A stretch of 64,000 nt of DNA from Minisyncoccota bacterium (GTDB lineage Bacteria; Patescibacteriota; Minisyncoccia; Phycocordibacterales; Phycocordibacteraceae), in the NCBI GenBank assembly GCA_018062765.1, contig JAGORR010000001.1, forward strand, positions 150,506 through 214,505, in the 5' to 3' direction. The notes beneath the pieces are model-generated. The model was not told the DNA's origin and ran no database searches. It saw nothing but the letters and a program-made list of their open reading frames with translations. This document shows, one piece after another, positions 21,861 to 64,000 of the stretch. Position numbers and translations under genes: made by a program. The stretch's first letter is position 1; the number at the start of each line of letters is the position of its first letter.

Positions 21861-21865
21861 GTTTG

Positions 21866-21939
21866 TCCACCCGCTTGGACTCGAACCAAGGACCGCGGAG
21901 GTATAAGCTCCGTGCTCTAACCAACTGAGCTACGGGTGG
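21866..21939 (-). tRNA. tRNA with anticodon UAU (Ile2-type, AUA-decoding), C1-G72, A73
   Basis: minus-strand cloverleaf CCACCCG-UA-GCUC-AGUUGGUUA-GAGC-A-CGGAG-CUUAUAC-CUCCG-CGGUC-CUUGG-UUCGAGU-CCAAG-CGGGUGG-A. Confidence 0.7.
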
Positions 21940-24338: not shown

Positions 24339-25319
24339 TCAGGCGAAGAGATAGTCAGCCGACGCCGACGCGATGTCGACGTGGAAGGCATCGGTCGTGA
24401 GCGCGAACTCGTCGGCGCTTGCGACCTTGCCTTTGCCGTCCTGCTCGTACATGTCGGAGGAGAACCAGTCCTGCTGATTGAGCCAGTCGACGGACTCGAT
24501 CTGGACTCCGCGCAGCACCAGGACATCGCGGTCGCCGGTGGCATCCGTGAGGATAAGCCTGTCGGAGTGACGCGGGTCGATCGCGACCTGGTCGGGCGTG
24601 TAGCCGAACAGATTGAACGTGTCGCCTTCTTCGGGATTGAACCCGATAATATGCGACACCCCATTCCTTTCGCCCATGTCAGCCCACATCGAGTACCCAT
24701 CGGCGCCGTCGCCACCGATGGCGACGACTCCGGCGCCGAAGTTGATGCCGTCATAGCCGGCGCCGCCTTCGACTCGCACGATGCCGGACAGGATGACGAA
24801 GGCGTCGTTGCCGTCACCGCCGAACATGCGCGCGGAGCTTCCTTCGAAGCGCAGGTAATCGTGACCCGCGCCGCCTTGCATGACGTCATTGATGCCAGAG
24901 CCGTAGAGCTCATCGTCGCCGTAGCCGCCATTCAGGCGGTTGGTGCCGTTGTTGCCTTGAAGCTCGTCGTCACCTGATCCGCCAAGGAGCGTGTCGTTGC
25001 CGTTGCCGCCGGAGACGAAATCGTCCTCGGAGCCGGCGTCGACGAGGTCGTTGCCGTTCCTGGCGAAAATCCAATCCTCGCCGAAGGAGCCGTAGACGAT
25101 GTCGTGCCCGGCGCCCATATAGATGTCGTCGTCGCCCGCGCCGGCCTTCACCGTGAAGGACATCGAGGTCGAGGAGCCGAGGTTGAGGTAATCGCCCTCG
25201 TGCGACAGCGTGATGAGGGCGCGAACGATAGCCTCCGTCACCGGCACCGCGATGGGGGCCGGCGAGGACACGGTCACAGGGGTCGACATCGTGTAGTTCG
25301 CGACAGAATAGCTGAACAT
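24339..25319 (-). CDS. RTX (hemolysin-type calcium-binding beta-roll) repeat protein
   Basis: tandem GGxGxDxUx nonapeptides (GGNGNDTLLGGSGDDELQGNNGTNRLNGGYGDDELYG...); GGAGAG SD upstream; no N-terminal signal peptide. Confidence 0.8.
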   Translation of the reverse strand: MFSYSVANYTMSTPVTVSSPAPIAVPVTEAIVRALITLSHEGDYLNLGSSTSMSFTVKAGAGDDDIYMGAGHDIVYGSFGEDWIFARNGNDLVDAGSEDDFVSGGNGNDTLLGGSGDDELQGNNGTNRLNGGYGDDELYGSGINDVMQGGAGHDYLRFEGSSARMFGGDGNDAFVILSGIVRVEGGAGYDGINFGAGVVAIGGDGADGYSMWADMGERNGVSHIIGFNPEEGDTFNLFGYTPDQVAIDPRHSDRLILTDATGDRDVLVLRGVQIESVDWLNQQDWFSSDMYEQDGKGKVASADEFALTTDAFHVDIASASADYLFA

Positions 25320-25524: not shown

Positions 25525-26703
25525 ATGAAAAAGATCATCACGCTTCTCGCCGCAATCGCATTCACGTTCGTTGGGTCGCTTCCGGTTGCGGCTGCGTCCG
25601 CCAAGAGTCAGGTGCCGGAGGCGATTTCCGCGAGCGAGCTTCAGGCGAAGTACGCGGCCGCTCTCACTTCGGGAGAGAAGGTACGCATCCTCATCGTTCC
25701 AGGACACGAGCCGACACTCGGCGGAACGGAGTACGAAGGATTCTATGAGCGCGAGATGGTCCTCGAGATCGCGGAGAAGCTCGCCGGTAGCCTCTCTGCG
25801 AACCCTCGGTTCGAGGTATTCACGACGCGCACGATTAGCGGTTGGAATCCGGAGTTCGCGAGTTATTTCAAGAAAGGGGAAAGGAAGACTAAGAAATTCG
25901 TCGCTGATCAAAAGAAGCTTTTCGAGAAGAAGGTGAAGAAGGGCGACATAGAGGAGCGGACAGAGGAAGTGCCGCATGCGACCGCCCGTAACGACATCGC
26001 GCTCCGCCTGTACGGCGTCAACCGATGGGCGAATGAAAACGGCATCGATCTTCTCATCCATCTCCATATCAACGACACCGGCGGCGGGGAAGCGCTCCGC
26101 AACAGTACCTCTGGATTCGCGATATACGTGCCTGACGCAGGATACGGGAACGGCGAAGCATCGCGCGAAGTCGCAGAGCCTATATTCGCGCGACTCGGCG
26201 CGATAGCGGCAACGTCGACGCTCCCGATCGAAAACCAAGGAATAGTCGAGGATCAATCACTGATCGCGATAGGCGCATATGATTCGTTGGCGGCGCCATC
26301 GGTTCTCATCGAATACGGATACATCACGGAGCCTAAGTTCCTCCACATCGAGACACGACGCACGGTGTCTACCGATCTCGCGTACCAGACGTATCGCGGT
26401 GTGCAGGATTTCTTCAAGCAACCCGCTCCGGTAACGCACCCGAGCCTGGTGCTTCCGTATGCATGGGTGGAAGGGAAGCACGCTGAAGGAGCGTCTGTGC
26501 AGACCTATGCGCTCCAGGTCGCGCTCCGTTCGCTCGGCTTCTACCCGATTTCCGGAAAGACGCTTACGGAGTGTCCGATTTCCGGTATTTGGGACGAATG
26601 CACGACGAGCGCGCTCAAAGCCTTCCAGGCCTCGCGGACTCTCACGCAGACAGGAGAGATAGGTCCTGCGACGAAAGCCGCTCTTACTCAGGCAGGCGTA
26701 TAG
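25525..26703 (+). CDS. N-acetylmuramoyl-L-alanine amidase (Amidase_3) with C-terminal peptidoglycan-binding domain; signal peptide
   Basis: N-terminal MKKIITLLAAIAFTFVGSLPVAAASA; ILIVPGHEP..E.E and LIHLHINDTGG amidase motifs; C-terminal ALQVALRSLGFYP...ALKAFQ is a PG_binding_1-like domain. Confidence 0.82.
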   Translation: MKKIITLLAAIAFTFVGSLPVAAASAKSQVPEAISASELQAKYAAALTSGEKVRILIVPGHEPTLGGTEYEGFYEREMVLEIAEKLAGSLSANPRFEVFTTRTISGWNPEFASYFKKGERKTKKFVADQKKLFEKKVKKGDIEERTEEVPHATARNDIALRLYGVNRWANENGIDLLIHLHINDTGGGEALRNSTSGFAIYVPDAGYGNGEASREVAEPIFARLGAIAATSTLPIENQGIVEDQSLIAIGAYDSLAAPSVLIEYGYITEPKFLHIETRRTVSTDLAYQTYRGVQDFFKQPAPVTHPSLVLPYAWVEGKHAEGASVQTYALQVALRSLGFYPISGKTLTECPISGIWDECTTSALKAFQASRTLTQTGEIGPATKAALTQAGV

Positions 26704-26790: not shown

Positions 26791-26901
26791 CCCATAGGTA
26801 TGCGCTCGTTTGTCCACAGTACATTTGTGTGGAGAGCAGACATTGCTTGGTATCGTCTAGAACAAGCAGGGGGCAAACCATTACTCGGTTTCGCCTTACC
26901 A

Positions 26902-29900
26902 ATGTCTACTCTAAAACGTGCGCTCATCGTCCTCGTCTTTGCATTTTGCGTACCCCAAGTATCGTTTGCAGCCTCTCCCTCGATTTCAGAACTCGAGAAG
27001 CTCTTGCGTGATCTGACCGAGCAGATCGAGCAGCTTCTAGCGCAGCGGGGGAATGACCCCGCGGAGATTTCAATGACCTCACCGGAGGACGGTGATTCGT
27101 TCGCATACGGCGACCGCATGAAGGTAAGTTGGCGTGCAGAGAATGTTCCGAAGAAAAGCGAGGTGTGCGTGTCGCTTGTTTCAAACGATGTCGATGGCTC
27201 AAGCAGTCCATTCTCGTCAGGCGACGGCTGCAAGAAGGCAAAGAACGGGACATCATCGGTAACAGGCAAGATCGATGACGACCTCGACTCGGGACTCTAT
27301 GACGTTATCGTCAGCTTAAAGACATGGGGCGGCTGGACGATTACGGGGGACGCGGTCGACGATATTCGCATCGATGACGAGCAGGATTTGGATGAGGACT
27401 ATGAAGAGGACGAAGATCGCGGAGATGACGACGACCTCGAGTACGAACTCGTTTCGCGCACATACGACGAAGGAGATGCGCTCGCCGAAGGTGCAGACAT
27501 AGACGGCATGTACCTCCGCGTAAAGAACGAGGGAAACCGCGACGTCACGATATATCCTGACGACGAGTGCCAGGTGTACTACGAGATTCGTCGCCAAGGT
27601 TCTGATAGCCTCGTCTATTCTTCGCAGGACGAAGATGAATGCGAAACGTATCGCAGCGCATCAGACGGTGCCTCCTACACCATAGAGGATGGTGACGATA
27701 TCGAACTCGATGTATCACACGATGAGGATGATTATCACTTGTCGCTCGGCGTCTATAGATTGATCGGATACCTCGCAGGGTACGGCAGCGACTCCTTCCG
27801 ATTTGAGGTGAAAGATGCGGACGGGTACGGACTTGGCGATCTCGAGATATACGTCGATGGCGACCGTGAAGTAGACCGTGACGATCGAACAAGAAGTGAG
27901 GCTGAGAATGAATGTGATGCAGTTGCGGATGCGAATCCTACCTCCGCCATACGTTGCGAATGGGACGACACGGTCATATATGAACGCGCAGAAGGGGAGG
28001 CGCGCGGGACCTACATCGCGTACAAGGACAACGTCGAATTCGTCCGTACGGAGAACGTGACGCAGGCGGAGGCAATCGCGAGCTGCAAGACGAGCATTAC
28101 CGCTAACCCAGGCAAGAGTTTCAAATGCACCTGGAACGGTGCGACGGTCCATACCGGCATCGTGTACAAGGTGACCGTGTCGAGCCCGAACAGCGGAACC
28201 TACGCGGCAGGCTCACCGATATCGGTAAGCTGGACGAGCCCATCAAGTTTCCCGTCAGACAGTATTCTTTGCGCGACCCTCGTACAGGGAACGAATGAGA
28301 CGGCTGTCGGCTCATGTGTGACAGGCGCGAAGGCGTCCGGAACGATAGCGGGTACAATCTCTTCGAGACTCTCCGGGAGTTATTACGTACGTGTTGCAGT
28401 TGCCTCAAAGAGCGCAACCCTTCTCGCCAGCGACTCGAGCACGAACGCGCTCACTATTACGAAGGCGCAGACGAGCTTGCTTGACCGTGTACTAGGGCGC
28501 CTCATGGCGGGTGTAGGGCAGGTGCTTGGTGCTTCGACCATGACTCTTACGCGCGATCTTACGATAGGATCCTCCGGCGCTGATGTAACGGCACTACAAA
28601 AGTGGCTTTATGCAGAAGGCTACATGACGCAGAAGGATACCGGGTATTTCGACCTAAAGACCCAACTTGGTGTCATGTCAGTCCAGCTAAAGTACAGCAT
28701 CGCGCCTGCTAACGGATTCGTGGGCGTTATCACGCGCGCTAAAATCAATGCGCTTATGGCTGCGACGCCCGCGCCTTCATCAACGAGTCTCTCGTTTGCC
28801 GCTGACGATCCATGGGTGAATGAGGGTCGATTCATACAGGGGGATACGAGTGACCCGACCGTGGACGAAGAGATATTCGCACTTGAGGCGACTGCAGGAC
28901 CAGGAAACGACATCACAGTTGATTCTCTACCCGTGACTTTTTCCCTTACCGGGGTTTCGAAGCTTGCCGACATGTTCTCGTCTCTCCGTCTCCTTGCTGA
29001 CGGCGAAGAAATAACGAGCGTAACGCCGTCGGGTACTTCAAAGACGGTGGTCTTCAAGGATCTCGATCACACTATCGAAGCAGGGGAGCGCACGAGCTTC
29101 TTCATCTTCGCTGACCTTAAGCCGCTTGCAGGGCTGTTCGCCAACGGCGGTACGTTCAGACTAAACTTTGGTGAGACACAGACGGACTCTGCTAGTTTTC
29201 TCGCAACAAACGAAGCAGGCACGAAGCTGACTGACGCACAGATCATGGGTGGAGCTTCAGCAGGAGAATTCGCGGTAAGTGCCGCCGGCATCCTTGCCGA
29301 CTTCATCGCTGCGAGCGAGACAGTGACAGAAGGTTCAGTAGGGGATACGGGCACCTTCACGATTACCTTCGAGGTAACCGCGATAGGCTCTGACGTATAC
29401 ATTCCGAGGTCAGCAAACACGACCGGCACTCCAGGTGTTCTGTATCGAGTCGTGGGTTCATCCGCGGCGAGCGCACAAAAGAGCGCTGTACTCGATAGCT
29501 CAGGCGACTCATCTGGCGCGGATTACATCGTCGACGAAGCGGATAGCGAGGAATTTGATCTGACGGTCATCGTCACCCCAACCGTTACTGGCGAGTATAG
29601 CGTTACTGCAGATAAACTTTTCTATCGCACCACATCTGGTGGAGCGCTTTCAAGTGTTACTCTTGCGGACTTCGAGACCGATGACGTCCTGCTTACGGTA
29701 GGCGGGGGTACACCATCGTGCATCCTCTCAGTATCTGCAACGACGATCGAAGCGGGAAAGAATTTTACGCTTACCTGGACGAGCGAAAACGCAACGAGCG
29801 CATCTCTAAACCTCGGAGTCGGTGCTGTTGCGGTGCGTGGCTCGCGTACCATGTCGCTTACAGAGGAGGGTCCAACCCAGGCCGAGCTTACGGTTACCAA

Positions 29901-30684
29901 TGCAGGAGGCACAAGGGCCACTTGCGAGGCATGGTTCCTGATATCGAAACCAATCAGTGCTGGAGTTGCGTACGAAGCAGCGTCACTAAACGCAACGACA
30001 CCAACGCCAACCATTAAAGGCAGCGCGACCTATGTCGTGAAGAACTTCAAACTTACTGGCACGCGTGCGGACGGCACGAATGCGTTCACCTCGAAGACCG
30101 TGAAGCCGTCGACCGATGGTAAATGGTCGGTAACACTCAAGGCTCTTAGGAACGGAACCTACACACTCGGCGCTGTCGGGACAAACGGAAGCAAAATTGA
30201 AGGCCGTGCAACTCTCGTGGTGAATGCCGAGGTGACGTATCGCGCTGTTCTCGACGGAGTCGTCGCGGATGAGATCAAGGGTCTTACCGAAGAAGAAGCA
30301 CTTGCTCGCTGTAAGGCCACCGCGGACGAGAACAGAGCAAAAAAGATTCACTGCGTATGGGACGGCAAGAAGATATATGAGCGTGGAGGGGCCGCTGCGT
30401 ACGAAATGTATGTCGACGGAGTGCTCAAGGTGTCGATTGCGCTTGCATCAAAGAGTGGAGCAGAGAAAAATTGTAAAGCGCAGGTCACGAAGTATTCCAC
30501 GAAGCCCGTCAAATGTACCTGGAACGGAGAGGTCTTTTATGACGAGCCTGCGATAGGTTCATCGACTGCCTCGACCACCGCAATGTATCGCGCGCCGAGC
30601 CGCCTCATGAGCCTTGTCGCCGGAGTCGGTACGGTGCTTACCGAGATTCCGAAGAACCTGTTGAAAATCTTCAGGTTCCAATAA
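26902..30684 (+). CDS. giant secreted/cell-surface protein (1260 aa): signal peptide, coiled coil, acidic tract, two copies of a 4-Cys repeat domain (C..C.W(D/N)..YER...C...KCTWNG), central peptidoglycan-binding domain
   Basis: ATG at 26902 gives MSTLKRALIVLVFAFCVPQVSFAASP; repeat copies span about 27900-28160 and 30280-30540; PG-binding-like TLTRDLTIGSSGADVTALQKWLYAEGY. Confidence 0.78.
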   Translation: MSTLKRALIVLVFAFCVPQVSFAASPSISELEKLLRDLTEQIEQLLAQRGNDPAEISMTSPEDGDSFAYGDRMKVSWRAENVPKKSEVCVSLVSNDVDGSSSPFSSGDGCKKAKNGTSSVTGKIDDDLDSGLYDVIVSLKTWGGWTITGDAVDDIRIDDEQDLDEDYEEDEDRGDDDDLEYELVSRTYDEGDALAEGADIDGMYLRVKNEGNRDVTIYPDDECQVYYEIRRQGSDSLVYSSQDEDECETYRSASDGASYTIEDGDDIELDVSHDEDDYHLSLGVYRLIGYLAGYGSDSFRFEVKDADGYGLGDLEIYVDGDREVDRDDRTRSEAENECDAVADANPTSAIRCEWDDTVIYERAEGEARGTYIAYKDNVEFVRTENVTQAEAIASCKTSITANPGKSFKCTWNGATVHTGIVYKVTVSSPNSGTYAAGSPISVSWTSPSSFPSDSILCATLVQGTNETAVGSCVTGAKASGTIAGTISSRLSGSYYVRVAVASKSATLLASDSSTNALTITKAQTSLLDRVLGRLMAGVGQVLGASTMTLTRDLTIGSSGADVTALQKWLYAEGYMTQKDTGYFDLKTQLGVMSVQLKYSIAPANGFVGVITRAKINALMAATPAPSSTSLSFAADDPWVNEGRFIQGDTSDPTVDEEIFALEATAGPGNDITVDSLPVTFSLTGVSKLADMFSSLRLLADGEEITSVTPSGTSKTVVFKDLDHTIEAGERTSFFIFADLKPLAGLFANGGTFRLNFGETQTDSASFLATNEAGTKLTDAQIMGGASAGEFAVSAAGILADFIAASETVTEGSVGDTGTFTITFEVTAIGSDVYIPRSANTTGTPGVLYRVVGSSAASAQKSAVLDSSGDSSGADYIVDEADSEEFDLTVIVTPTVTGEYSVTADKLFYRTTSGGALSSVTLADFETDDVLLTVGGGTPSCILSVSATTIEAGKNFTLTWTSENATSASLNLGVGAVAVRGSRTMSLTEEGPTQAELTVTNAGGTRATCEAWFLISKPISAGVAYEAASLNATTPTPTIKGSATYVVKNFKLTGTRADGTNAFTSKTVKPSTDGKWSVTLKALRNGTYTLGAVGTNGSKIEGRATLVVNAEVTYRAVLDGVVADEIKGLTEEEALARCKATADENRAKKIHCVWDGKKIYERGGAAAYEMYVDGVLKVSIALASKSGAEKNCKAQVTKYSTKPVKCTWNGEVFYDEPAIGSSTASTTAMYRAPSRLMSLVAGVGTVLTEIPKNLLKIFRFQ

Positions 30685-57671: not shown

Positions 57672-57745
57672 TTGCGGGAGTAGCTCAACTGGTTAGAGCG
57701 CCGCCCTGTCACGGCGGAGGTTGCGGGTTCAAGTCCCGTCTCTCG
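57672..57745 (+). tRNA. tRNA-Asp (anticodon GUC)
   Basis: GCGGGAG-UA-GCUC-AACUGGUUA-GAGC-G-CCGCC-CUGUCAC-GGCGG-AGGUU-GCGGG-UUCAAGU-CCCGU-CUCUCGC-G. Confidence 0.9.
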
Positions 57746-59343
57746 CGCAGAAAGGGACTCAAGGAGCTGAAAGGCTCCTTTTGTCCTTTCCCTACGCCAT
57801 TCTTTTTGGTTCTAACCGAATCAACTTCAGCTTCGATAGCTTCGTGCTTCTCAGCAAGGGGCTTCAGCCATTCGTTGAGCGTTATGGCTATCTTCTGGTC
57901 TTTTAGCGTGTAGTTCTGACCAAGAGCCAATAGAATCTCTTTCTTTGTCTGGAGGTCGCCTGTTGAGAAGGTCTGGCGAGCGTGGCAAGCAAATTTAAAT
58001 GCGTTTTCAGTAAGCTCGATCCAGATAGCCGCACGATTCTCCGTTTTCTTAACCTCGTCCTTCAAGGTTTGAAGCTGCATCTGGAGTGTCTTCCTTTCTT
58101 TCAGGAACTCTTCGTCGCCGATTAACTCCCGATAGCGCATCTTCGTAAGGGTATCTAGCTGATTCTGAGTTGAAAGAAGAGCTCTCTGCTGGGTTTCGTG
58201 TATTTTGGTTCTTTCAAATATCTCGCTGTCATTTTGCTCGTTTATCACCTCTAACGCCCATTCTTTGAACTTGATGGGAATCTCAATAGTCTCAAGTACT
58301 TCTCCGATCTGGCTCTCAAGGTCTACAGAAGAGAGATAGGTTCTCTGTGAGCAGGTTTCAGAGCCTTTCCTGCGTCGCGTGCAGTAGTAGTAAGTAAACG
58401 TCTTAACCTCTCCCGTTCGCTTGATAACCTTTGTTTTATTAATAGCCGTAATCGAGCTTCCGCATTCTCCGCAAGAGATAATTCCCGTAAACGGAAACTC
58501 ATGCGTCTTGGGGCGGGGGCGGCCTTCACGACCGAGGAGCATCTGTACCTTGTCGAACTCTTCGGCAGTAATCATCGCCTCATGCTTACCCGGATGAATC
58601 TCACCTCGATACCGAAAGGAGCCCATATAGAACGGGTCTGTGAGAATCCGATAGATAGTACTTCTAGAGATAGGTTTCGAACCCCTCCTCTTCATCGGCC
58701 GTGTTCGTAGGCCCCAGTTGTTATTAACAACGTTTAGCAATGCTGGCGGTGTATAAGCGCCCGTAAGCATATGGTCCCAAAGCCTGCGAATCAGAGGGAA
58801 CCGATCAGGGTCTTTAATGATGTAGTTCTCTCCACGAATCTCAATTCGTGTATTCAGATACCCCAGCGGTGCCATGATTGGCGCGATACCTTTCTGAATC
58901 TTGTCCTCTAAACCGCGTCTCACACCCTTTTTCAGGTCAAGGATGAATTGGTTTGCTGACCCGCTTTCAACGCTTAAAAGAAGCGCATTGTCGTCCGGAC
59001 GGTACTCCCTGCTAACAGTCCGTATCAGGGAGATGGTGCCTTGCTGGAGCATCCATTGAATCGTCCCACTATCTACGGGATTCCTCGAAAGACGATTAAT
59101 CTCCCAGCAAAGTATTCCCGTAGCCTCACCCTTTTCCAGACGCTCCAGCATATGACCGAAAACTGGTCGATTATGAGGGCTTTTAGCAGACTTCGACTCC
59201 CTCAATATGTCTACGATTTCGAACCCAGAACTCTCGGCAAGCTGGATCAACCTTTCGGTCTGGCTCTCTATGGACTGAACTTGTCGATCCTCGCTTTCGG
59301 AAGATTTTCGGGCGTACAGGAAGAATTTCGGCTTAGGGGTCAT
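57709..59343 (-). CDS. large serine recombinase (resolvase-type catalytic domain + recombinase domain + zinc ribbon)
   Basis: FLYARKSSESEDRQVQSIESQ catalytic Ser region, INRLSRN; Cys cluster CGECGSS...YYYC...C; C-terminal 12 codons encoded by the antisense of the tRNA-Asp 3' end. Confidence 0.88.
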   Translation of the reverse strand: MTPKPKFFLYARKSSESEDRQVQSIESQTERLIQLAESSGFEIVDILRESKSAKSPHNRPVFGHMLERLEKGEATGILCWEINRLSRNPVDSGTIQWMLQQGTISLIRTVSREYRPDDNALLLSVESGSANQFILDLKKGVRRGLEDKIQKGIAPIMAPLGYLNTRIEIRGENYIIKDPDRFPLIRRLWDHMLTGAYTPPALLNVVNNNWGLRTRPMKRRGSKPISRSTIYRILTDPFYMGSFRYRGEIHPGKHEAMITAEEFDKVQMLLGREGRPRPKTHEFPFTGIISCGECGSSITAINKTKVIKRTGEVKTFTYYYCTRRRKGSETCSQRTYLSSVDLESQIGEVLETIEIPIKFKEWALEVINEQNDSEIFERTKIHETQQRALLSTQNQLDTLTKMRYRELIGDEEFLKERKTLQMQLQTLKDEVKKTENRAAIWIELTENAFKFACHARQTFSTGDLQTKKEILLALGQNYTLKDQKIAITLNEWLKPLAEKHEAIEAEVDSVRTKKNGVGKGQKEPFSSLSPFLRERRDLNPQPPP

Positions 59344-59460
59344 AAGTGATTGGTTTAATCAAAGCACGCGCCGCCCCGAGTGAGTTTTCCGACATCGTAT
59401 AGCTCCAATCCGGTACTTTGATTAATTTGATTAATAATCATGCGAAAGGCGTCATTTAAC

Positions 59461-60288
59461 CTAGAAAACCTGATCATCTCGTTCGCGCACGAGGTTCTGC
59501 AGGACGCTGTTAAAGTAGGCCGCTGGATTCTCAACCTCCTCAAAGGCAGATGAGGCACGAAAACGCTCAAGGGCCTCTTCAATAACGTCGATTCCATACT
59601 TATGGACCGACCCGATAAGGAAATCCATCTTCGTTTCCCCAAGTTCCTGCGCAATCTCCCAGCACCGCTCCTCCTCACTCGTTTCAGGTAAGAACCGTTC
59701 TACAGATAAATTTCTGCTCCTTTTAGGAGAATCGATTGCGCGTATATCGATTTTCTTTTTGGTATAGGTATCGGTATTAGGAGCTCTGAATGTCTCTGTA
59801 ATCGAATGGTTCTTTTGCAAAGCATATAAGCCACCATCAAGACTTTTTGACCTCTGACTTCCTGACTCAAGCTCTGGAATCGCCTCTGCCGTAGTGACGG
59901 TTTCAGGAGTGGACTCACCTCTGACTTGCTCGGCTTCAAAGTAGTGAGTGATTCTTCTGGGAGGACGAGGACGCCCATTGTTATCCTTCCCGATTGCGGG
60001 CCACCAGTCTAAGTAAACTTGGAACGAACCTCTGCAACCCGCACGTGGCCGGTAGTATATGTACTTCTTACATTTCAAGGATAAGAGGATCTTGTTAGCG
60101 TAGTTAGCTGTTGCTCCTTGTGGTAGGGAGTCCTCCGCAAGGCTAGTTAGATCAACTATCGCCATACTGTACGGGTTACCGAGCTGGCGTAGCCACTCGA
60201 GCATCTGCCTCTCGGGCTTGCTAATGCGCCGTTCCCGGTAGTCATCGGCGTAACTCCGGGGAATCGTTATGAAGCTATATTCCTGCAT
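59461..60288 (-). CDS. hypothetical protein of the integrated element (275 aa; possible replication/primase-like)
   Basis: ORF only; no recognisable motif. Confidence 0.45.
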   Translation of the reverse strand: MQEYSFITIPRSYADDYRERRISKPERQMLEWLRQLGNPYSMAIVDLTSLAEDSLPQGATANYANKILLSLKCKKYIYYRPRAGCRGSFQVYLDWWPAIGKDNNGRPRPPRRITHYFEAEQVRGESTPETVTTAEAIPELESGSQRSKSLDGGLYALQKNHSITETFRAPNTDTYTKKKIDIRAIDSPKRSRNLSVERFLPETSEEERCWEIAQELGETKMDFLIGSVHKYGIDVIEEALERFRASSAFEEVENPAAYFNSVLQNLVRERDDQVF

Positions 60289-60439
60289 ACATGCTCATCG
60301 TTCTCCGTGTGAACCAAAGTCAGTCTCATCAGCGTTGCTAGAGCGTTACCGACCTCCCGCGCCTTAACCCGGTCGAGCGTTACACCATATTCGGCCTCAT
60401 ATAGGCCCTGAAGCTCCTTAAGACGGGAATCCGAGATCT

Positions 60440-60763
60440 TCATGGTCTAGAGTCGTACAGGCGAGATTTGAGCGTCTTTTGAGCGTTAAACAGGCCTTGC
60501 GGCTCTACCAGGAGCCTGCCAAGCCAGAAGGCCTCAACGGCCCTAACAAGACTCTCGTCTTGCTTAAAGTAAAAAACTGCTCGGCCCGGATCGGACCGGT
60601 CTATGCCAACATAGACTGCTCCTAACGCGAGGAGACTGGCGGCCAGCGGAAAGTCCGAGGTCCCGTATTCATGTTCATTTTTCACCATGCCCGTATCTTG
60701 GGGGCGTGGATTCTTAAGATTCTTTAAGAAACGATCACCATTTCCCAGGCGCTGCGTCGTCAA
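60440..60763 (-). CDS. hypothetical small protein of the integrated element (107 aa)
   Basis: ORF only; conserved-looking C-terminal FYFKQDESLVRAVEAFWLGRLLV. Confidence 0.4.
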   Translation of the reverse strand: MTTQRLGNGDRFLKNLKNPRPQDTGMVKNEHEYGTSDFPLAASLLALGAVYVGIDRSDPGRAVFYFKQDESLVRAVEAFWLGRLLVEPQGLFNAQKTLKSRLYDSRP

Positions 60764-61715
60764 TAGGTTCTAGGTAGCTGCGGTTCAGACTCACGCCCTG
60801 TGTGGTGATTACAAAAAAATCTTTAGCGCCTGCAACATCCAGTTTCGTTTGTATGGCGAGAAATTGGTCGTAAAGAATCTTCCACTTGCCCTTCTTGGTG
60901 AAATCTACGATTTCGAAGAGTTCGTCAAAGAGCCAATCCTTCTTCGAGTCGGTCCAAAAGGCCCTTAGCGTATCGTGTTGTTTAGAGGTTTTCTTAAATT
61001 GTACGAAAACCTCACCTGTCCAAAGTCTTGAAGAACTTTCCTCGAAATACGGTATTCGCGATAAGGCAGTCTCAGAATTTTCTTCTTTCTTTGGATTGGC
61101 ATTGGTGTTGTAAATCAGCGTGTCTAGATTTTTGCTTATCCAGTTAAGTGCGCGGGCTTTAATAGTGATTTCGAATAGAAGATTCGGATAGAGACCAAAA
61201 TATATACCCTCACCCGCGCGTTCGGACTCTAATTCAAGGATTTCGTCGATACTGACTTTTCCAGATAACACGGTGTTCAAGATTGGGTAACCAGCTAGTT
61301 CGGCAAGATTCTTTGCTTTGGTCTTTTCACCTTTCCGCAGGAGATCGAGGAAAGATTCTGTGAGTGGATCGAAGTCGTTATCGTGACCATCAAAATGACT
61401 AAAGAGTAACTGCTTCTCGTAGGTAATGAATCCTTCTGCTTCCAGCTCCGGTAATGTCTTCGAGACTGCGTAATGGAATTGACCAAGAGAGTAAAGAGAG
61501 AGGGCATAGGTAACAACTTGGTGCGTTCCTACGCCATACCCCGCAAGCGGAATCAGGAGCAACCGCGCCTCATTCGAGAGTTTCACATCACGAACCATTC
61601 TCATTTGCCCAAGTATTGCACCTCGGTAGCCTAGTTCAACTTGTCCCAGAACACCACTTGCGCAAGCACCGTCAAGGAGTAGGGTACAGATAAGTTTGAA
61701 TATATGAGTATGCAA
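60735..61715 (-). CDS. hypothetical protein of the integrated element (326 aa), AT-rich
   Basis: ORF only; composition differs from the host genes. Confidence 0.45.
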   Translation of the reverse strand: MHTHIFKLICTLLLDGACASGVLGQVELGYRGAILGQMRMVRDVKLSNEARLLLIPLAGYGVGTHQVVTYALSLYSLGQFHYAVSKTLPELEAEGFITYEKQLLFSHFDGHDNDFDPLTESFLDLLRKGEKTKAKNLAELAGYPILNTVLSGKVSIDEILELESERAGEGIYFGLYPNLLFEITIKARALNWISKNLDTLIYNTNANPKKEENSETALSRIPYFEESSSRLWTGEVFVQFKKTSKQHDTLRAFWTDSKKDWLFDELFEIVDFTKKGKWKILYDQFLAIQTKLDVAGAKDFFVITTQGVSLNRSYLEPIDDAAPGKW

Positions 61716-62165
61716 AATCGCGATACTGTTGCGGAATATATTACCGGAGATTTAGACCGTGTATTAGAAGCTGAAAGGAGTCGTAGCAAGGAGTTCTCAA
61801 CAAACCTGCGAACCTACGCTTGGCAGGCTTTTCTAGCCCTAGCTGAGGTCATTGTTGCGGTGGCCATCGTATCAGATTTATACGGATCTGACGTCACTAT
61901 CATTGCATTGCTCTTGTTGATTTATGTAGTGATTAGAGTCAATTTCTCTAACTTGTTCTTTTTCTTTCAAGCGCACACTACAGCAATGGCCAAGGAGATA
62001 TTCGATATAAAGGAAAAGGTGGGTATCGATGTGAGCGGTGAATACGAAAAGATAAAAGTGGCGAATCGAATATTAAGACGCTCGACAGTAGTAAACATGA
62101 TTCATACTGTCGGCTTGTTTCTTATCTTCGTCCTTGCGCTCCTAACGCTCTTCTCAACGTATTAA
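61704..62165 (+). CDS. hypothetical membrane protein of the integrated element
   Basis: 153 aa, two to three TM segments. Confidence 0.4.
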   Translation: MSMQNRDTVAEYITGDLDRVLEAERSRSKEFSTNLRTYAWQAFLALAEVIVAVAIVSDLYGSDVTIIALLLLIYVVIRVNFSNLFFFFQAHTTAMAKEIFDIKEKVGIDVSGEYEKIKVANRILRRSTVVNMIHTVGLFLIFVLALLTLFSTY

Positions 62166-62178
62166 CGAATCTCTTCTT

Positions 62179-62409
62179 ATGAAAAAACTTCTACAGGAAA
62201 ACTGGTTCAAGATTCTGATTTTGGCGCTCGGACTTTATGCGATTACAGTTACTCCTTTCAAGTACGCTGATAGAGCGCTATGGGCGGAGGAAAGGCTTAC
62301 GGCTTTTAATAAATGCGTCGAGGACTTCTCCATTGAAGGTGCGATAGATAAATATAGTGCCTACCAGTCTATGTTCCGTGCTTGCAAGAACATGAGCGAT
62401 GAATTTTAG
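62179..62409 (+). CDS. small hypothetical membrane protein of the integrated element
   Basis: 76 aa, one TM segment. Confidence 0.35.
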   Translation: MKKLLQENWFKILILALGLYAITVTPFKYADRALWAEERLTAFNKCVEDFSIEGAIDKYSAYQSMFRACKNMSDEF

Positions 62410-62532
62410 GGCAAAATATCTTAACCACACCCCTTCATTGACACCACATGGCCATACGCGTAGGGTGAATATATACCCGCTCCGGCTGGCCGAAAGGCTC
62501 GCCGGAGTTTCGTTATACAGGCCTGTATTTAC

Positions 62533-63147
62533 TTGGTAGAATGGGTCGAAATGGAAACCATCCTCCTAATAGACGGTGAAAATTTTAAAGGGAAGATAAA
62601 GACCGTCTTCAAGAACGCAGGCAAAGAGAGACCCGTTTGGTACGAGTATGATTTCAAGGGTCTTCTAGATAAGGTTCTGGACGGGTTAGCCATCGATAGA
62701 AAAGTTTTTTACTTTGCGCGCGTTAAGGAGCATCAGGATAGCCGAGAGAAGTCAAAGCAACTTATTGAAGAACAGCGCTATCTGAAGGATCATCTAGAGA
62801 AACATGGCTTCGAGGTAATCCTTTCAGGGCGAGTCCGAGGCCAATGGGAGGAAGGACTTGGAGGTAAAAAGGCGCTGGTATTCAAGGAGAAGGGTGTTGA
62901 TGTAAAGGTTGCTGTCGATATGGTGAGTCTCTCTTGTGATAAAAGAGCGAAAGAGATAATTCTTGGCAGTTCAGACTCTGATTTACAGCCAGCAATCAAA
63001 GAAGTCAGGGATCGAGGGATCGCTTGCATGTATCTAGGTTTTGAGGCTCAGCCAAATAAGGGCTTAACATATACTACGAATAGGACAATTTTAATACGCG
63101 ACGCTGAAGTTTTGGAGTTTGAGAAATACCAAAAGCCTCTCATTTAG
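62533..63147 (+). CDS. NYN-domain (LabA-like PIN-fold) putative ribonuclease
   Basis: ILLIDGENF...GVDVKVAVDMVSL...ILGSSDSDLQPAIKEV motifs. Confidence 0.72.
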   Translation: MVEWVEMETILLIDGENFKGKIKTVFKNAGKERPVWYEYDFKGLLDKVLDGLAIDRKVFYFARVKEHQDSREKSKQLIEEQRYLKDHLEKHGFEVILSGRVRGQWEEGLGGKKALVFKEKGVDVKVAVDMVSLSCDKRAKEIILGSSDSDLQPAIKEVRDRGIACMYLGFEAQPNKGLTYTTNRTILIRDAEVLEFEKYQKPLI

Positions 63148-63210
63148 AAGCGGTCAGGTTTATAGACTGACGTATTTCAGTTCCCACTTCCTCCACTAGG
63201 GCGCGCAAGA

Positions 63211-63238
63211 CACGAAGTCCCCGAAAGGGGACTTCGTG
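63211..63238 (+). terminator. 12-bp stem hairpin with GAAA tetraloop CACGAAGTCCCC-GAAA-GGGGACTTCGTG
   Basis: read directly; downstream of the NYN gene. Confidence 0.6.
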
Positions 63239-63877
63239 CTTGTCGCGAGAGTTCGAAGAGAAGCTTCGAAAGGGACTTGAACGGCGCAGCGACGATTCGT
63301 CAGCAGACGTATCCGCGAGCCGGGGCTGCAGGCGAGTCGAGTAACGACGAGACGAGACCGAAAGCCAAGCCTGTCCTACGCAGAATGGAAAAGCCGGCGA
63401 AAGCCGGTCTTTTCTTTATTCTGTCGACGAGCTGTTTATACGTGGGGCGTATAAACAGGGACTTGAATGCCGCAGCTATATGCGAGCAGCAGCGAGCATT
63501 GCCAGGCAGGGCCGGGAAAATTAGTGAGCGACGGCGAGCTAACTATTCATGGCCTAGCCCGTCTCTCGCGCCATCGGTCTGAGCTATACTCCCTATATAT
63601 GCCCCCAACCACACCGACCCCGCCTGTAGCTCCTCCGCCCGCACCCGCGCCATCAAGCATGAAGGCGTACTTTATGTGGTTCGTGGTCATCGATACCCTC
63701 ATCGTCATCGCGATAGTCATCGGACTTTATTACTGGTTTGAGATGCGTGCAGAAATCGCGAAGCCGGACCCGGCACAGGCGTATTCCGTAGAATAGGCTT
63801 GGAAATATATCCTCGCGACTTTACGGTAGGGGACCGCATCGTGTAATACTTTTATCAAAGCCACTTAACTAACCCTC

Positions 63878-64000
63878 ATGGACCTACTTGCTATTCGTAC
63901 ATTCGCCATCGTCGGCGTCATGCTCGTCGTGACCGCCTTCTCGACGCGCCTCAATAAGGCGTTCGAAACCGCTTGGGAGATGTGGGGTCTTTTCATCGGA
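63878..64000 (+). CDS. partial 5' end of a membrane protein gene running off the window
   Basis: ATG at 63878, hydrophobic MDLLAIRTFAIVGVMLVVTAF... Confidence 0.3.
   Translation, partial: MDLLAIRTFAIVGVMLVVTAFSTRLNKAFETAWEMWGLFIG

Follow-up and report, generated by a model that had tools for sequence, protein, structure and literature searches.

The window analysed here, a stretch of 64,000 nucleotides, carries on its forward strand an open reading frame at 26902..30684 whose 1260-aa translation agrees residue for residue with P0001, entitled 'MAG: peptidoglycan-binding protein [Candidatus Pacebacteria bacterium]' at NCBI. The reading frame and the CPR origin of the organism, both put forward in an initial annotation made from the DNA, are confirmed by this identity. 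The longest open reading frame begins at 26800; the 1260-aa form (start MSTLKR) is that called by NCBI, and P0002, which is 70% identical to P0001, begins at the equivalent position. On inspection, the first 23 residues look like a Sec signal peptide. They include a basic n-region, a hydrophobic core and the residues S-F-A ahead of a putative cleavage site between MSTLKRALIVLVFAFCVPQVSFA and AS, and this signal-like sequence is conserved in P0002. The protein therefore appears to be secreted, as had been proposed. The features of the locus, all on the + strand, are as follows. Bit scores of the repeat units are against a family HMM whose 122 units come from other proteins, those of the window and of P0002 being excluded.

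25525..26703, + strand: upstream gene on the same strand, cell-wall amidase with Amidase_3 and PG_binding_1 (Pfam)
26902..30684, + strand, stop codon included: gene for the 1260-aa, apparently secreted protein with PG_binding_1 (list of open reading frames and translation)
26902..26970, + strand: putative Sec signal peptide, aa 1-23, MSTLKRALIVLVFAFCVPQVSFA (inspection of the sequence)
27055..27396, + strand: domain A (beta-rich, with a Cys pair), aa 52-165; domain C is its paralogue (local alignment)
27832..27993, + strand: unit 1a, aa 311-364, C338/C352 (49.2 bits, i-Evalue 1.8e-17; tandem AF2 model)
28000..28164, + strand: unit 1b, aa 367-421, C395/C409 (66.2 bits, i-Evalue 8.6e-23; AF2 single-unit model)
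28159..28476, + strand: domain C (beta-rich, with a Cys pair), aa 420-525; domain A is its paralogue (local alignment)
28573..28743, + strand: PG_binding_1, aa 558-614 (Pfam PF01471, E=1.2e-6)
30226..30390, + strand: unit 2a, aa 1109-1163, C1137/C1151 (50.3 bits, i-Evalue 7.9e-18; fold by homology)
30391..30552, + strand: unit 2b, aa 1164-1217, C1191/C1205 (50.7 bits, i-Evalue 6.2e-18; fold by homology)
30553..30681, + strand: C-terminal tail with the hydrophobic segment LMSLVAGVGTVL (sequence; conserved in P0002)

The PG_binding_1 domain (29 bits, above the Pfam cut-off of 23, covering profile positions 1-56 of 57) occupies a central position between two pairs of units, so that the two cysteine-containing segments do flank a peptidoglycan-binding domain as originally described. 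Domains A and C are related to each other (local alignment score 70, z=7.2). Related CPR proteins match the Ig-like family Kre9_KNH in Pfam; in P0001 this family gives only a sub-threshold match, located elsewhere than domain A (aa 946-974). Cys-pair domains of the Ig-like or Kre9_KNH type resemble the units in being extracellular, in occurring in the same proteins and in carrying one conserved Cys pair, but they are all-beta, of about 100 aa, and form a separate family. The hydrophobic segment of the tail resembles aa ~530-545, directly ahead of PG_binding_1. The order of the Amidase_3 gene and the unit gene is repeated in the contig that encodes P0002 (L046), and an amidase-like PG_binding_1 neighbour is present at a further locus (L016). 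The amidase is a possible functional partner of the unit protein, linked to it by synteny only.

The duplication of the cysteine-containing segment is real. Smith-Waterman alignment of the two copies scores 139 (z=20.7), while 2000 shuffles gave 28.9 +/- 5.3 and at most 58; a BLASTP self-comparison of P0001 missed the repeat. The segments extend over aa 311-421 and 1109-1217 and not, as first delimited, over 345-430 and 1135-1215. Their supposed terminal placement holds for the second, which lies near the terminus, but not for the first, which starts at residue 311. Each segment is itself a tandem of two homologous two-Cys units of about 55 aa (C-x13-C-x-W). All six pairwise comparisons of the four units are significant (z=11-16, the observed score being reached in 0/1000 shuffles), and the cysteine spacing, given earlier as x8-11, is C-x13-C in 4/4 units. 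The residues A23, C27, C41 and W43 (A-x3-C-x13-C-x-W) are invariant in 8/8 units of P0001 and P0002. No further units were found in the window outside the gene at 26902..30684.

AlphaFold2 models predict the unit to be an autonomous beta-beta-alpha-beta-beta module which folds alone. The model of unit 1b (pLDDT 95.6, pTM 0.78) has strands at 3-9, 12-20, 40-45 and 48-54 and a helix at 22-35, and that of units 1a and 1b in tandem (pLDDT 93.8) contains two full sets of these elements; its pTM of only 0.63 fits two separate modules. These observations bear on the original description of each segment of about 100 aa as a single domain in which four cysteines form two disulfides. The units of P0001 are always paired, with linkers of 0-2 aa, which would suit such a domain, but the halves of a segment are homologous to each other, each is predicted to fold by itself, and units in other proteins can be single, odd-numbered, far apart or in arrays of up to 8. 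Models and alignments thus replace this domain with two independent two-Cys modules in tandem, and we regard the four-cysteine fold as extremely improbable.

An exhaustive HMMER search of 1.84 billion proteins recovered 270 cluster representatives of the unit family at E<=1e-3 and 80 at <=1e-10. The short profiles A1 and A3 yielded no relatives in word-indexed searches, the index failing on queries of about 55 aa. For the family, 342 units were located in 151 proteins, with one to eight units per protein and linkers between adjacent units mostly of -5 to +20 aa; in some members, such as P0011, units inside one protein are near-identical. Across the family both cysteines are conserved at 99-100%, the alanine at -4 at 93% and the tryptophan at +2 at 87%, and 308 of the 342 units contain exactly two cysteines. 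The unit therefore defines a real and recurring domain family in which the Cys pair is invariant, with one cysteine in the helix and the other in strand 3. Conservation is also seen at polar helix positions spaced i, i+4, i+8 (N28 49%, N32 48%, N36 64%) and at R/K42, T44 and Y/F51, which the strand parity relative to C43 would place on the uncovered face of the sheet. The four units of the window diverge more than any others seen, with a mean identity of 27-32% to other units. They keep the core residues, but of N28 and N32 each unit retains one or none, and a binding site at these positions, if there is one, may therefore be altered in P0001.

In the co-variation of 1326 pairs across the family, C29-C43 ranks 2nd, 28-32 3rd, C29-W45 10th and A25-C43 11th, and the three pairs that involve a cysteine place the helix near strand 3. 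Both the hairpins and the Cys pair emerged from mean-field DCA. A hydrophobic N-terminal segment is present in 121 of the 146 family proteins with a full start. From the invariance of the cysteines, their co-variation and these export signals we infer that the helix and strand-3 cysteines form a disulfide which would stiffen the module outside the cell.

No recognised family had been named for these segments, and a confident match to a known one had been set beforehand as the refuting result. The unit has no match in Pfam-A, NCBIfam or PDB sequence profiles, and Foldseek of its model against the PDB gave nothing at E<=1e-3; neither a curated carbohydrate-binding or adhesin domain (Pfam, NCBIfam, PDB) nor any other family was matched with confidence. 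In the literature we found no paper with the CTWNG motif and nothing specific on protein families shared by CPR bacteria and predators. Among the best fold resemblances is a small uncharacterised phage protein, BFVD A0A6J5NQS2, at TMq 0.74 (rmsd 2.2, E=0.025); another, at TMq 0.55, is Dmd of phages T4/RB69 (5hy3_B, 5i8j). These phage proteins differ from the unit in lacking the Cys pair, the repeats and an export signal, none reaches E<=1e-3, and identities are 7-18%; they are cytoplasmic or of unknown function and so have no bearing on that of the unit.

In several ways the unit resembles the B1 domains of protein G and protein L (IgG_binding_B, beta-grasp). All are of about 55 aa with the order hairpin-helix-hairpin and form tandem repeats on the surface proteins of bacteria, where they are (for the unit, would be) autonomous binding modules. 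A diverged kinship with these domains of Gram-positive surface proteins could account for the shared length and the nearly identical positions of the elements, and the hhalign alignment (P=0.0024) brings the helix and the first two strands into register. The hhalign probability is nevertheless just 12%, and protein L gives no match. There is no Pfam hit to IgG_binding_B at E<=10 and no PDB sequence-profile match in spite of the many GB1 entries, and GB1 is not among the top 50 Foldseek matches in the PDB. GB1 has no disulfide, and immunoglobulin binding is not expected in the organisms that carry the unit. The GB1 fold is defined by a mixed sheet of order 2-1-4-3 in which strand 1 is parallel to strand 4. 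In the unit the order may be another, as DCA favours antiparallel contacts of strand 1 with strand 3 (i+j about 48-50) over contacts of strand 1 with strand 4, the signal being weak. A diverged relationship with these domains appears very unlikely.

A scan of species-representative genomes with a degenerate DNA pattern gave 45 matches, reduced to 40 verified loci after five false or unverifiable ones (L007, L021, L029, L034, L040) were dropped. Half of these (20) are from Patescibacteria, 12 from Myxococcota (including Bradymonadia), 5 from Bdellovibrionota and 3 from others; the pattern recovers only about 40% of known members (61/151 proteins), so this phyletic picture may be incomplete. The pattern was absent from viral contigs. 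Mean identity is about 41-44% between phyla and 46-49% within phyla, values biased by the search pattern. The commonest partner is PG_binding_1, a three-helix wall-binding domain not homologous to the unit, which a local HMM found in 48/151 family proteins. At the CPR loci it is present both in the unit proteins and in neighbouring genes, whereas in the Bdellovibrionota and Myxococcota members examined the units reside in lipoproteins devoid of it, with lipobox-type N-termini in Bdellovibrionales and Cystobacter. Pfam scans of sampled family proteins showed further partners, among them the spacer-type Ig-like domains Kre9_KNH, Bact_surface_Ig-like and N_BRCA1_IG. A cyanobacterial assembly (Hyella) encodes a single unit C-terminal to a Ser/Thr kinase domain, after a hydrophobic segment; with this segment read as a transmembrane helix, the unit looks like the ectodomain of the kinase. 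The gene neighbourhoods in Bdellovibrionales (L035) and Cystobacter (L032) consist of housekeeping genes and gave no functional lead.

Taken together, the data lead us to view the unit, with a probability of about 0.5, as an extracellular, probably disulfide-stapled surface repeat module that would act as a multivalent binding or adhesion unit. No annotated or experimentally studied relative was found, so that any function of the unit is inferred. P0001 would be exported through Sec and displayed on the surface, its central PG_binding_1 domain probably tying it to the peptidoglycan of its own cell. The two pairs of units, one on each side of this domain, would then be displayed and could bind, multivalently, an envelope ligand of another cell or wall material. 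Four observations hint at binding over mere spacing: the conserved polar helix positions together with the 28-32 co-variation, the conserved R/K42, T44 and Y/F51 on the presumed uncovered sheet face, the ectodomain-like single unit of Hyella, and the distribution of the verified loci over lineages.

The units could also be purely structural, rigid and possibly disulfide-stapled beads which set the reach of a surface protein without any ligand, like the Ig-like, Rib and G5-E stalk repeats. We consider this unlikely, though a serious possibility. It would suit the arrays of one to eight units with short linkers, the association with spacer-type Ig-like domains, and the near-identity of adjacent units in proteins such as P0011, which indicates recent tandem expansion and is typical of stalk repeats; the retention of core residues in the window units, from which most of the conserved Asn positions are gone, would be expected too. 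On the other hand, the cross-phylum identity is unusually high for a spacer (with the bias of the search pattern noted above), polar positions are conserved and not the core alone, and in the Hyella kinase one unit is apparently the sole domain past the predicted transmembrane segment.

The strong association with PG_binding_1, the adjoining Amidase_3 gene and the apparent kinase ectodomain also recall PASTA domains (PF03793; PBPs and PrkC/PknB-type kinases), which are likewise small alpha+beta extracellular repeats in beads-on-a-string arrays involved in peptidoglycan biology. The units might accordingly be additional anchors to the cell's own wall or muropeptide sensors, similar to PASTA or SPOR, which bind the peptidoglycan of the same cell or its fragments and not another cell. 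The likeness of the model to the PASTA region of PrkC (3py9, E=1.7, TMq 0.55) is not significant, however, and neither PASTA (PF03793) nor SPOR is matched in Pfam. PASTA has one helix and three strands and no conserved Cys pair, while four strands are predicted here, and the lipoproteins examined in Bdellovibrionota and Myxococcota do without PG_binding_1. Binding of the cell's own wall thus seems decidedly unlikely.

For the multivalent binding module which we prefer, the lineages concerned provide circumstantial support for a role in adhesion or host interaction, reduced by the loss of most conserved Asn positions in the window units. The near-exclusive occurrence, in the genome scan, in ultra-small symbionts and in bacteria preying on bacteria hints at a role in touching other cells. 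More speculatively, the unit may be a cell-contact module common, by descent or transfer, to CPR episymbionts, Bdellovibrionota and Myxococcota/Bradymonadia. Its conserved Asn stripe and the exposed face of its sheet would then bind some conserved constituent of the target envelope, thereby mediating attachment to host or prey. This extension is, in our opinion, rather doubtful.

Little is known of how CPR/Patescibacteria attach to host cells, and their surface proteins are mostly unannotated. What was a '1260-aa hypothetical peptidoglycan-binding protein' now has a domain map, whose repeated unit is a compact, confidently modelled domain family absent from the curated libraries searched and for which no curated name was found. 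The restriction to lineages of episymbionts and predators seen in the genome scan provides a concrete hypothesis that is cheap to pursue, and because some members belong to organisms that can be cultured, namely Cystobacter fuscus, Archangium minus and relatives of Bdellovibrio, binding and knockout work is feasible. Should the units be no more than spacers, they would still be useful for annotating several hundred protein clusters; if they do serve in cell contact, they would constitute a sequence marker of a bacterivorous or epibiotic lifestyle.

The longest open reading frame at this gene covers 26800–30684 (+). Read from 26902 (MSTLKR...), it gives a 1260-aa protein identical to P0001 of NCBI, which is encoded on a 638-kb contig and annotated as 'MAG: peptidoglycan-binding protein [Candidatus Pacebacteria bacterium]'. 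Its sole close relative, P0002 (1263 aa, 70% identity), starts at the equivalent position. Judged by inspection only, the N-terminus of P0001 reads as a putative Sec signal peptide, MSTLKRALIVLVFAFCVPQVSFA/AS. PG_binding_1 at aa 558–614 is the only Pfam match (29 bits against a cut-off of 23), and NCBIfam returned nothing except SleB, far below threshold, over the same region. The protein contains 17 Cys, and its two Cys-pair beta-rich domains, A (aa 52–165) and C (aa 420–525), are paralogous (z = 7.2). Its layout is as follows:

N-terminal part: signal peptide, short heptad-like segment, domain A, acidic stretch, beta domain, units 1a and 1b
After unit 1b: domain C, PG_binding_1, about 300 beta-rich aa, two Ig-like regions, units 2a and 2b, hydrophobic tail

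The protein has a pair of mutually similar hydrophobic segments, LGRLMAGVGQVLGAS and RLMSLVAGVGTVLTEI, both of them kept in P0002 and shorter than a classical transmembrane helix needs:

28459–28536 (aa ~520–545), directly before PG_binding_1
30553–30681 (aa 1218–1260), in the C-terminal tail

The duplicated Cys-bearing segment of the initial annotation is real: aa 310–425 and 1105–1220 align with a score of 139, far above chance (28.9 ± 5.3 in 2000 shuffles; z = 20.7). Each segment had been taken as one four-cysteine domain with C-x8-11-C spacing, a reading that we now consider very improbable. Each consists of two homologous ~55-aa units in a row (1a and 1b, 2a and 2b): all six unit-unit comparisons give z = 11–16, the observed score being reached in 0 of 1000 shuffles, and the spacing is exactly C-x13-C throughout (C338/352, C395/409, C1137/1151 and C1191/1205). 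All units have an Ala at position -4 from the first Cys and a Trp at +2 from the second, and they are absent from every other ORF of the 64-kb window.

Word-indexed searches with short unit profiles found no relatives. An exhaustive HMMER search with an eight-unit profile against 1.84 billion protein representatives matched 270 proteins at E≤1e-3 (80 at ≤1e-10 and 15 at ≤1e-30), with 1–8 units per protein. The best 151 proteins hold 342 units, with the consensus xxGTYxGYLNGxLFITTxNIT+ADALANCKxNAxxNPxxSIRCTWNGEEIY; both Cys are conserved at 99–100%, Ala at 93% and Trp at 87%, and 308 of the 342 units have exactly two Cys. Neighbouring units are mostly spaced by -5 to +20 residues, some by hundreds. 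An N-terminal hydrophobic segment is present in 121 of 146 Met-start proteins. The four window units are divergent (mean identity 27–32% to other family units); their scores of 49–66 bits against a family HMM that excluded the window and P0002 units make their membership unambiguous.

For unit 1b, AlphaFold2 with a 128-sequence alignment predicted strands at 3–9 and 12–20, a helix at 22–35 and strands at 40–45 and 48–54 (pLDDT 95.6, pTM 0.78). The two-disulfide fold envisaged earlier gave way to two complete sets of these elements in the tandem 1a+1b model, whose pLDDT of 93.8 and pTM of 0.63 indicate two modules whose orientation to each other is not fixed with confidence. The first Cys lies mid-helix and the second mid-strand 3. 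Mean-field co-variation analysis of 332 units (Meff 292) recovered both hairpins and ranked C29-C43 2nd, C29-W45 10th and A25-C43 11th among 1326 pairs. This co-variation, the invariance of the two Cys and the export signals jointly support a predicted helix-to-sheet disulfide in each unit.

The initial annotation recognised no family for this domain, and this holds for the unit: Pfam gave zero matches to the window units at E≤10 and none over the unit itself in 16 scanned family proteins, and neither NCBIfam nor PDB sequence profiles matched it. In the proposed Foldseek comparison of the unit 1b model with the PDB, no entry reached E≤1e-3, the top matches being C. difficile SlpA (7acz; E=0.47, TMq 0.53), T4 Dmd (5hy3_B; TMq 0.55) and the PrkC PASTA region (3py9; E=1.7), and the tandem model did no better. 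Fold matches in BFVD were small uncharacterised phage proteins only (best E=0.025, TMq 0.74). Protein G B1 (GB1) was tested directly because its elements nearly coincide in position with those of the unit. The hhalign alignment brings strands 1 and 2 and the helix into register at 12% probability (P=0.0024), protein L did not match, and GB1 was missing from the top 50 Foldseek PDB matches; co-variation weakly favours antiparallel contacts of strands 1 and 3, whereas GB1 pairs strands 1 and 4 in parallel. Homology to GB1 is thus hardly credible, and the unit was not filed as a beta-grasp or IgG_binding_B member. Neither the curated libraries nor the PDB searches used here yielded a counterpart to it; as a kind, small extracellular modules repeated along surface proteins are familiar.

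A degenerate DNA pattern for A-x2-N-C-x6-N-P-x5-C-T-W, which recovers 61 of the 151 family proteins, was scanned against one genome per GTDB species and returned 45 loci, 40 with HMM-verified units. By record title these are:

Patescibacteria (CPR), 20 loci: 8 Saccharibacteria; the rest including Parcubacteria/Paceibacterota, Gracilibacteria, Peregrinibacteria, Uhrbacteria and Kaiserbacteria
Myxococcota, 12 loci: Archangium minus, Cystobacter fuscus (two), Archangium sp., Nannocystis, Polyangium, Myxococcales MAGs, Bradymonadia
Bdellovibrionota, 5 loci
Unclassified groundwater MAG, 1 locus
Cyanobacterial assembly (Hyella), 1 locus
'Pseudomonadota' MAG, 1 locus

The phyla that, to our knowledge, dominate the collection yielded no loci, and the pattern was not found in IMG/VR viral contigs. 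This distribution is suggestive of a lineage-restricted family of episymbionts and predators. One Gracilibacteria locus (L040, 274–336) matches the pattern and has no HMM unit on table-11 translation; Gracilibacteria read UGA as Gly, so its ORF may be split by that translation.

The CPR proteins examined carry the unit among Ig-like domains. In Bdellovibrionales, a single Ig-like domain precedes 5–7 units in lipoproteins with a lipobox. Myxococcota have lipoproteins with two extra-Cys units, or proteins in which N_BRCA1_IG or TARSH_C-like domains are joined to units. Archangium/Cystobacter units (L014, L018, L025, L031, L032, L036) have at least two further conserved Cys each (for example GYTCGTSSHFITTESISCQDARRKC...YCTWN...GAC), which suggests additional disulfides in this clade. 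In five loci from Myxococcales, Bradymonadia and 'Pseudomonadota' MAGs (L015, L020, L027, L037, L038) the unit is fused to a conserved Cys-rich C-terminal domain, matching Pfam TARSH_C (E ~3e-9) in L015 and L027, the only two scanned; TARSH_C is otherwise an animal extracellular-matrix domain. The sole cyanobacterial match is a kinase gene:

L004, 2197–3507 (+), Hyella patelloides assembly, Ser/Thr protein kinase (Pkinase E=7.7e-27)

Its product has, in order, a kinase domain, a hydrophobic segment and a single C-terminal unit, a placement by which the unit appears to be the kinase ectodomain. Contamination of a non-axenic culture could be the source of the 14-kb contig.

The P0001 gene is preceded on the same strand by an amidase gene, with an RTX-repeat gene directly upstream of the latter and RecG farther off, and is followed by malic enzyme:

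25525–26703 (+), Amidase_3 and PG_binding_1 gene (Pfam)
24339–25319 (−), RTX calcium-binding nonapeptide repeat protein, 326 aa (HemolysinCabind E=5.7e-14)

This order is repeated around P0002, where the RTX counterpart (298 aa) has no Pfam match on record; the genomes being closely related, it is weak evidence for a functional link. Elsewhere in the window, GC falls from ~0.57 to ~0.48 over 57674–64000, a stretch that looks like a mobile element inserted at a tRNA-Asp gene; two ORFs without Pfam match and an NYN-domain ORF (62533–63147) lie past its recombinase. ARAGORN also found a tRNA-Ile(UAU), uncommon in bacteria, where a lysidine-modified CAU tRNA usually decodes AUA.

57674–57748, tRNA-Asp, start of the low-GC stretch
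57709–59343 (−), large serine recombinase, first in that stretch (Resolvase, Recombinase, Zn_ribbon_recom)
21865–21939 (−), tRNA-Ile, anticodon UAU (tat)
51885 and 57401, tRNA-Met(CAT) genes (ARAGORN)

P0001 appears to be an exported multi-domain protein; it combines a peptidoglycan-binding domain with four autonomous two-Cys modules of an extracellular repeat family. Each module is presumably stapled by one disulfide, and the modules would act as multivalent binding or adhesion units. We give this binding role a probability of roughly 0.5. In its favour are the conserved and co-varying polar helix positions N28, N32 and N36 (i, i+4, i+8), the conserved R/K42, T44 and Y/F51, which strand parity would place on the uncovered sheet face, the lone unit apparently serving as a kinase ectodomain, and the occurrence of almost all scan loci in bacteria that fasten onto or attack other bacteria. 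Against it, the family is without a characterised relative, the Asn positions are mostly lost from the window units, and near-identical unit arrays resemble stalks; that the units are pure spacers is a lesser possibility. PG_binding_1 occurs in 48 of the 151 family proteins, and CPR unit genes often lie inside clusters of PG_binding_1 genes; a special case of binding, to the cell's own wall or to muropeptides, nevertheless seems rather unlikely. Three Saccharibacteria MAGs (L023, L024, L005) have unit genes in runs of 2–5 consecutive PG_binding_1-protein genes, and two neighbouring genes of L023 each carry units. The analysis yields a cleanly defined domain, a confident model and a suggestive pattern of occurrence in episymbionts and predators, with members in culturable organisms.
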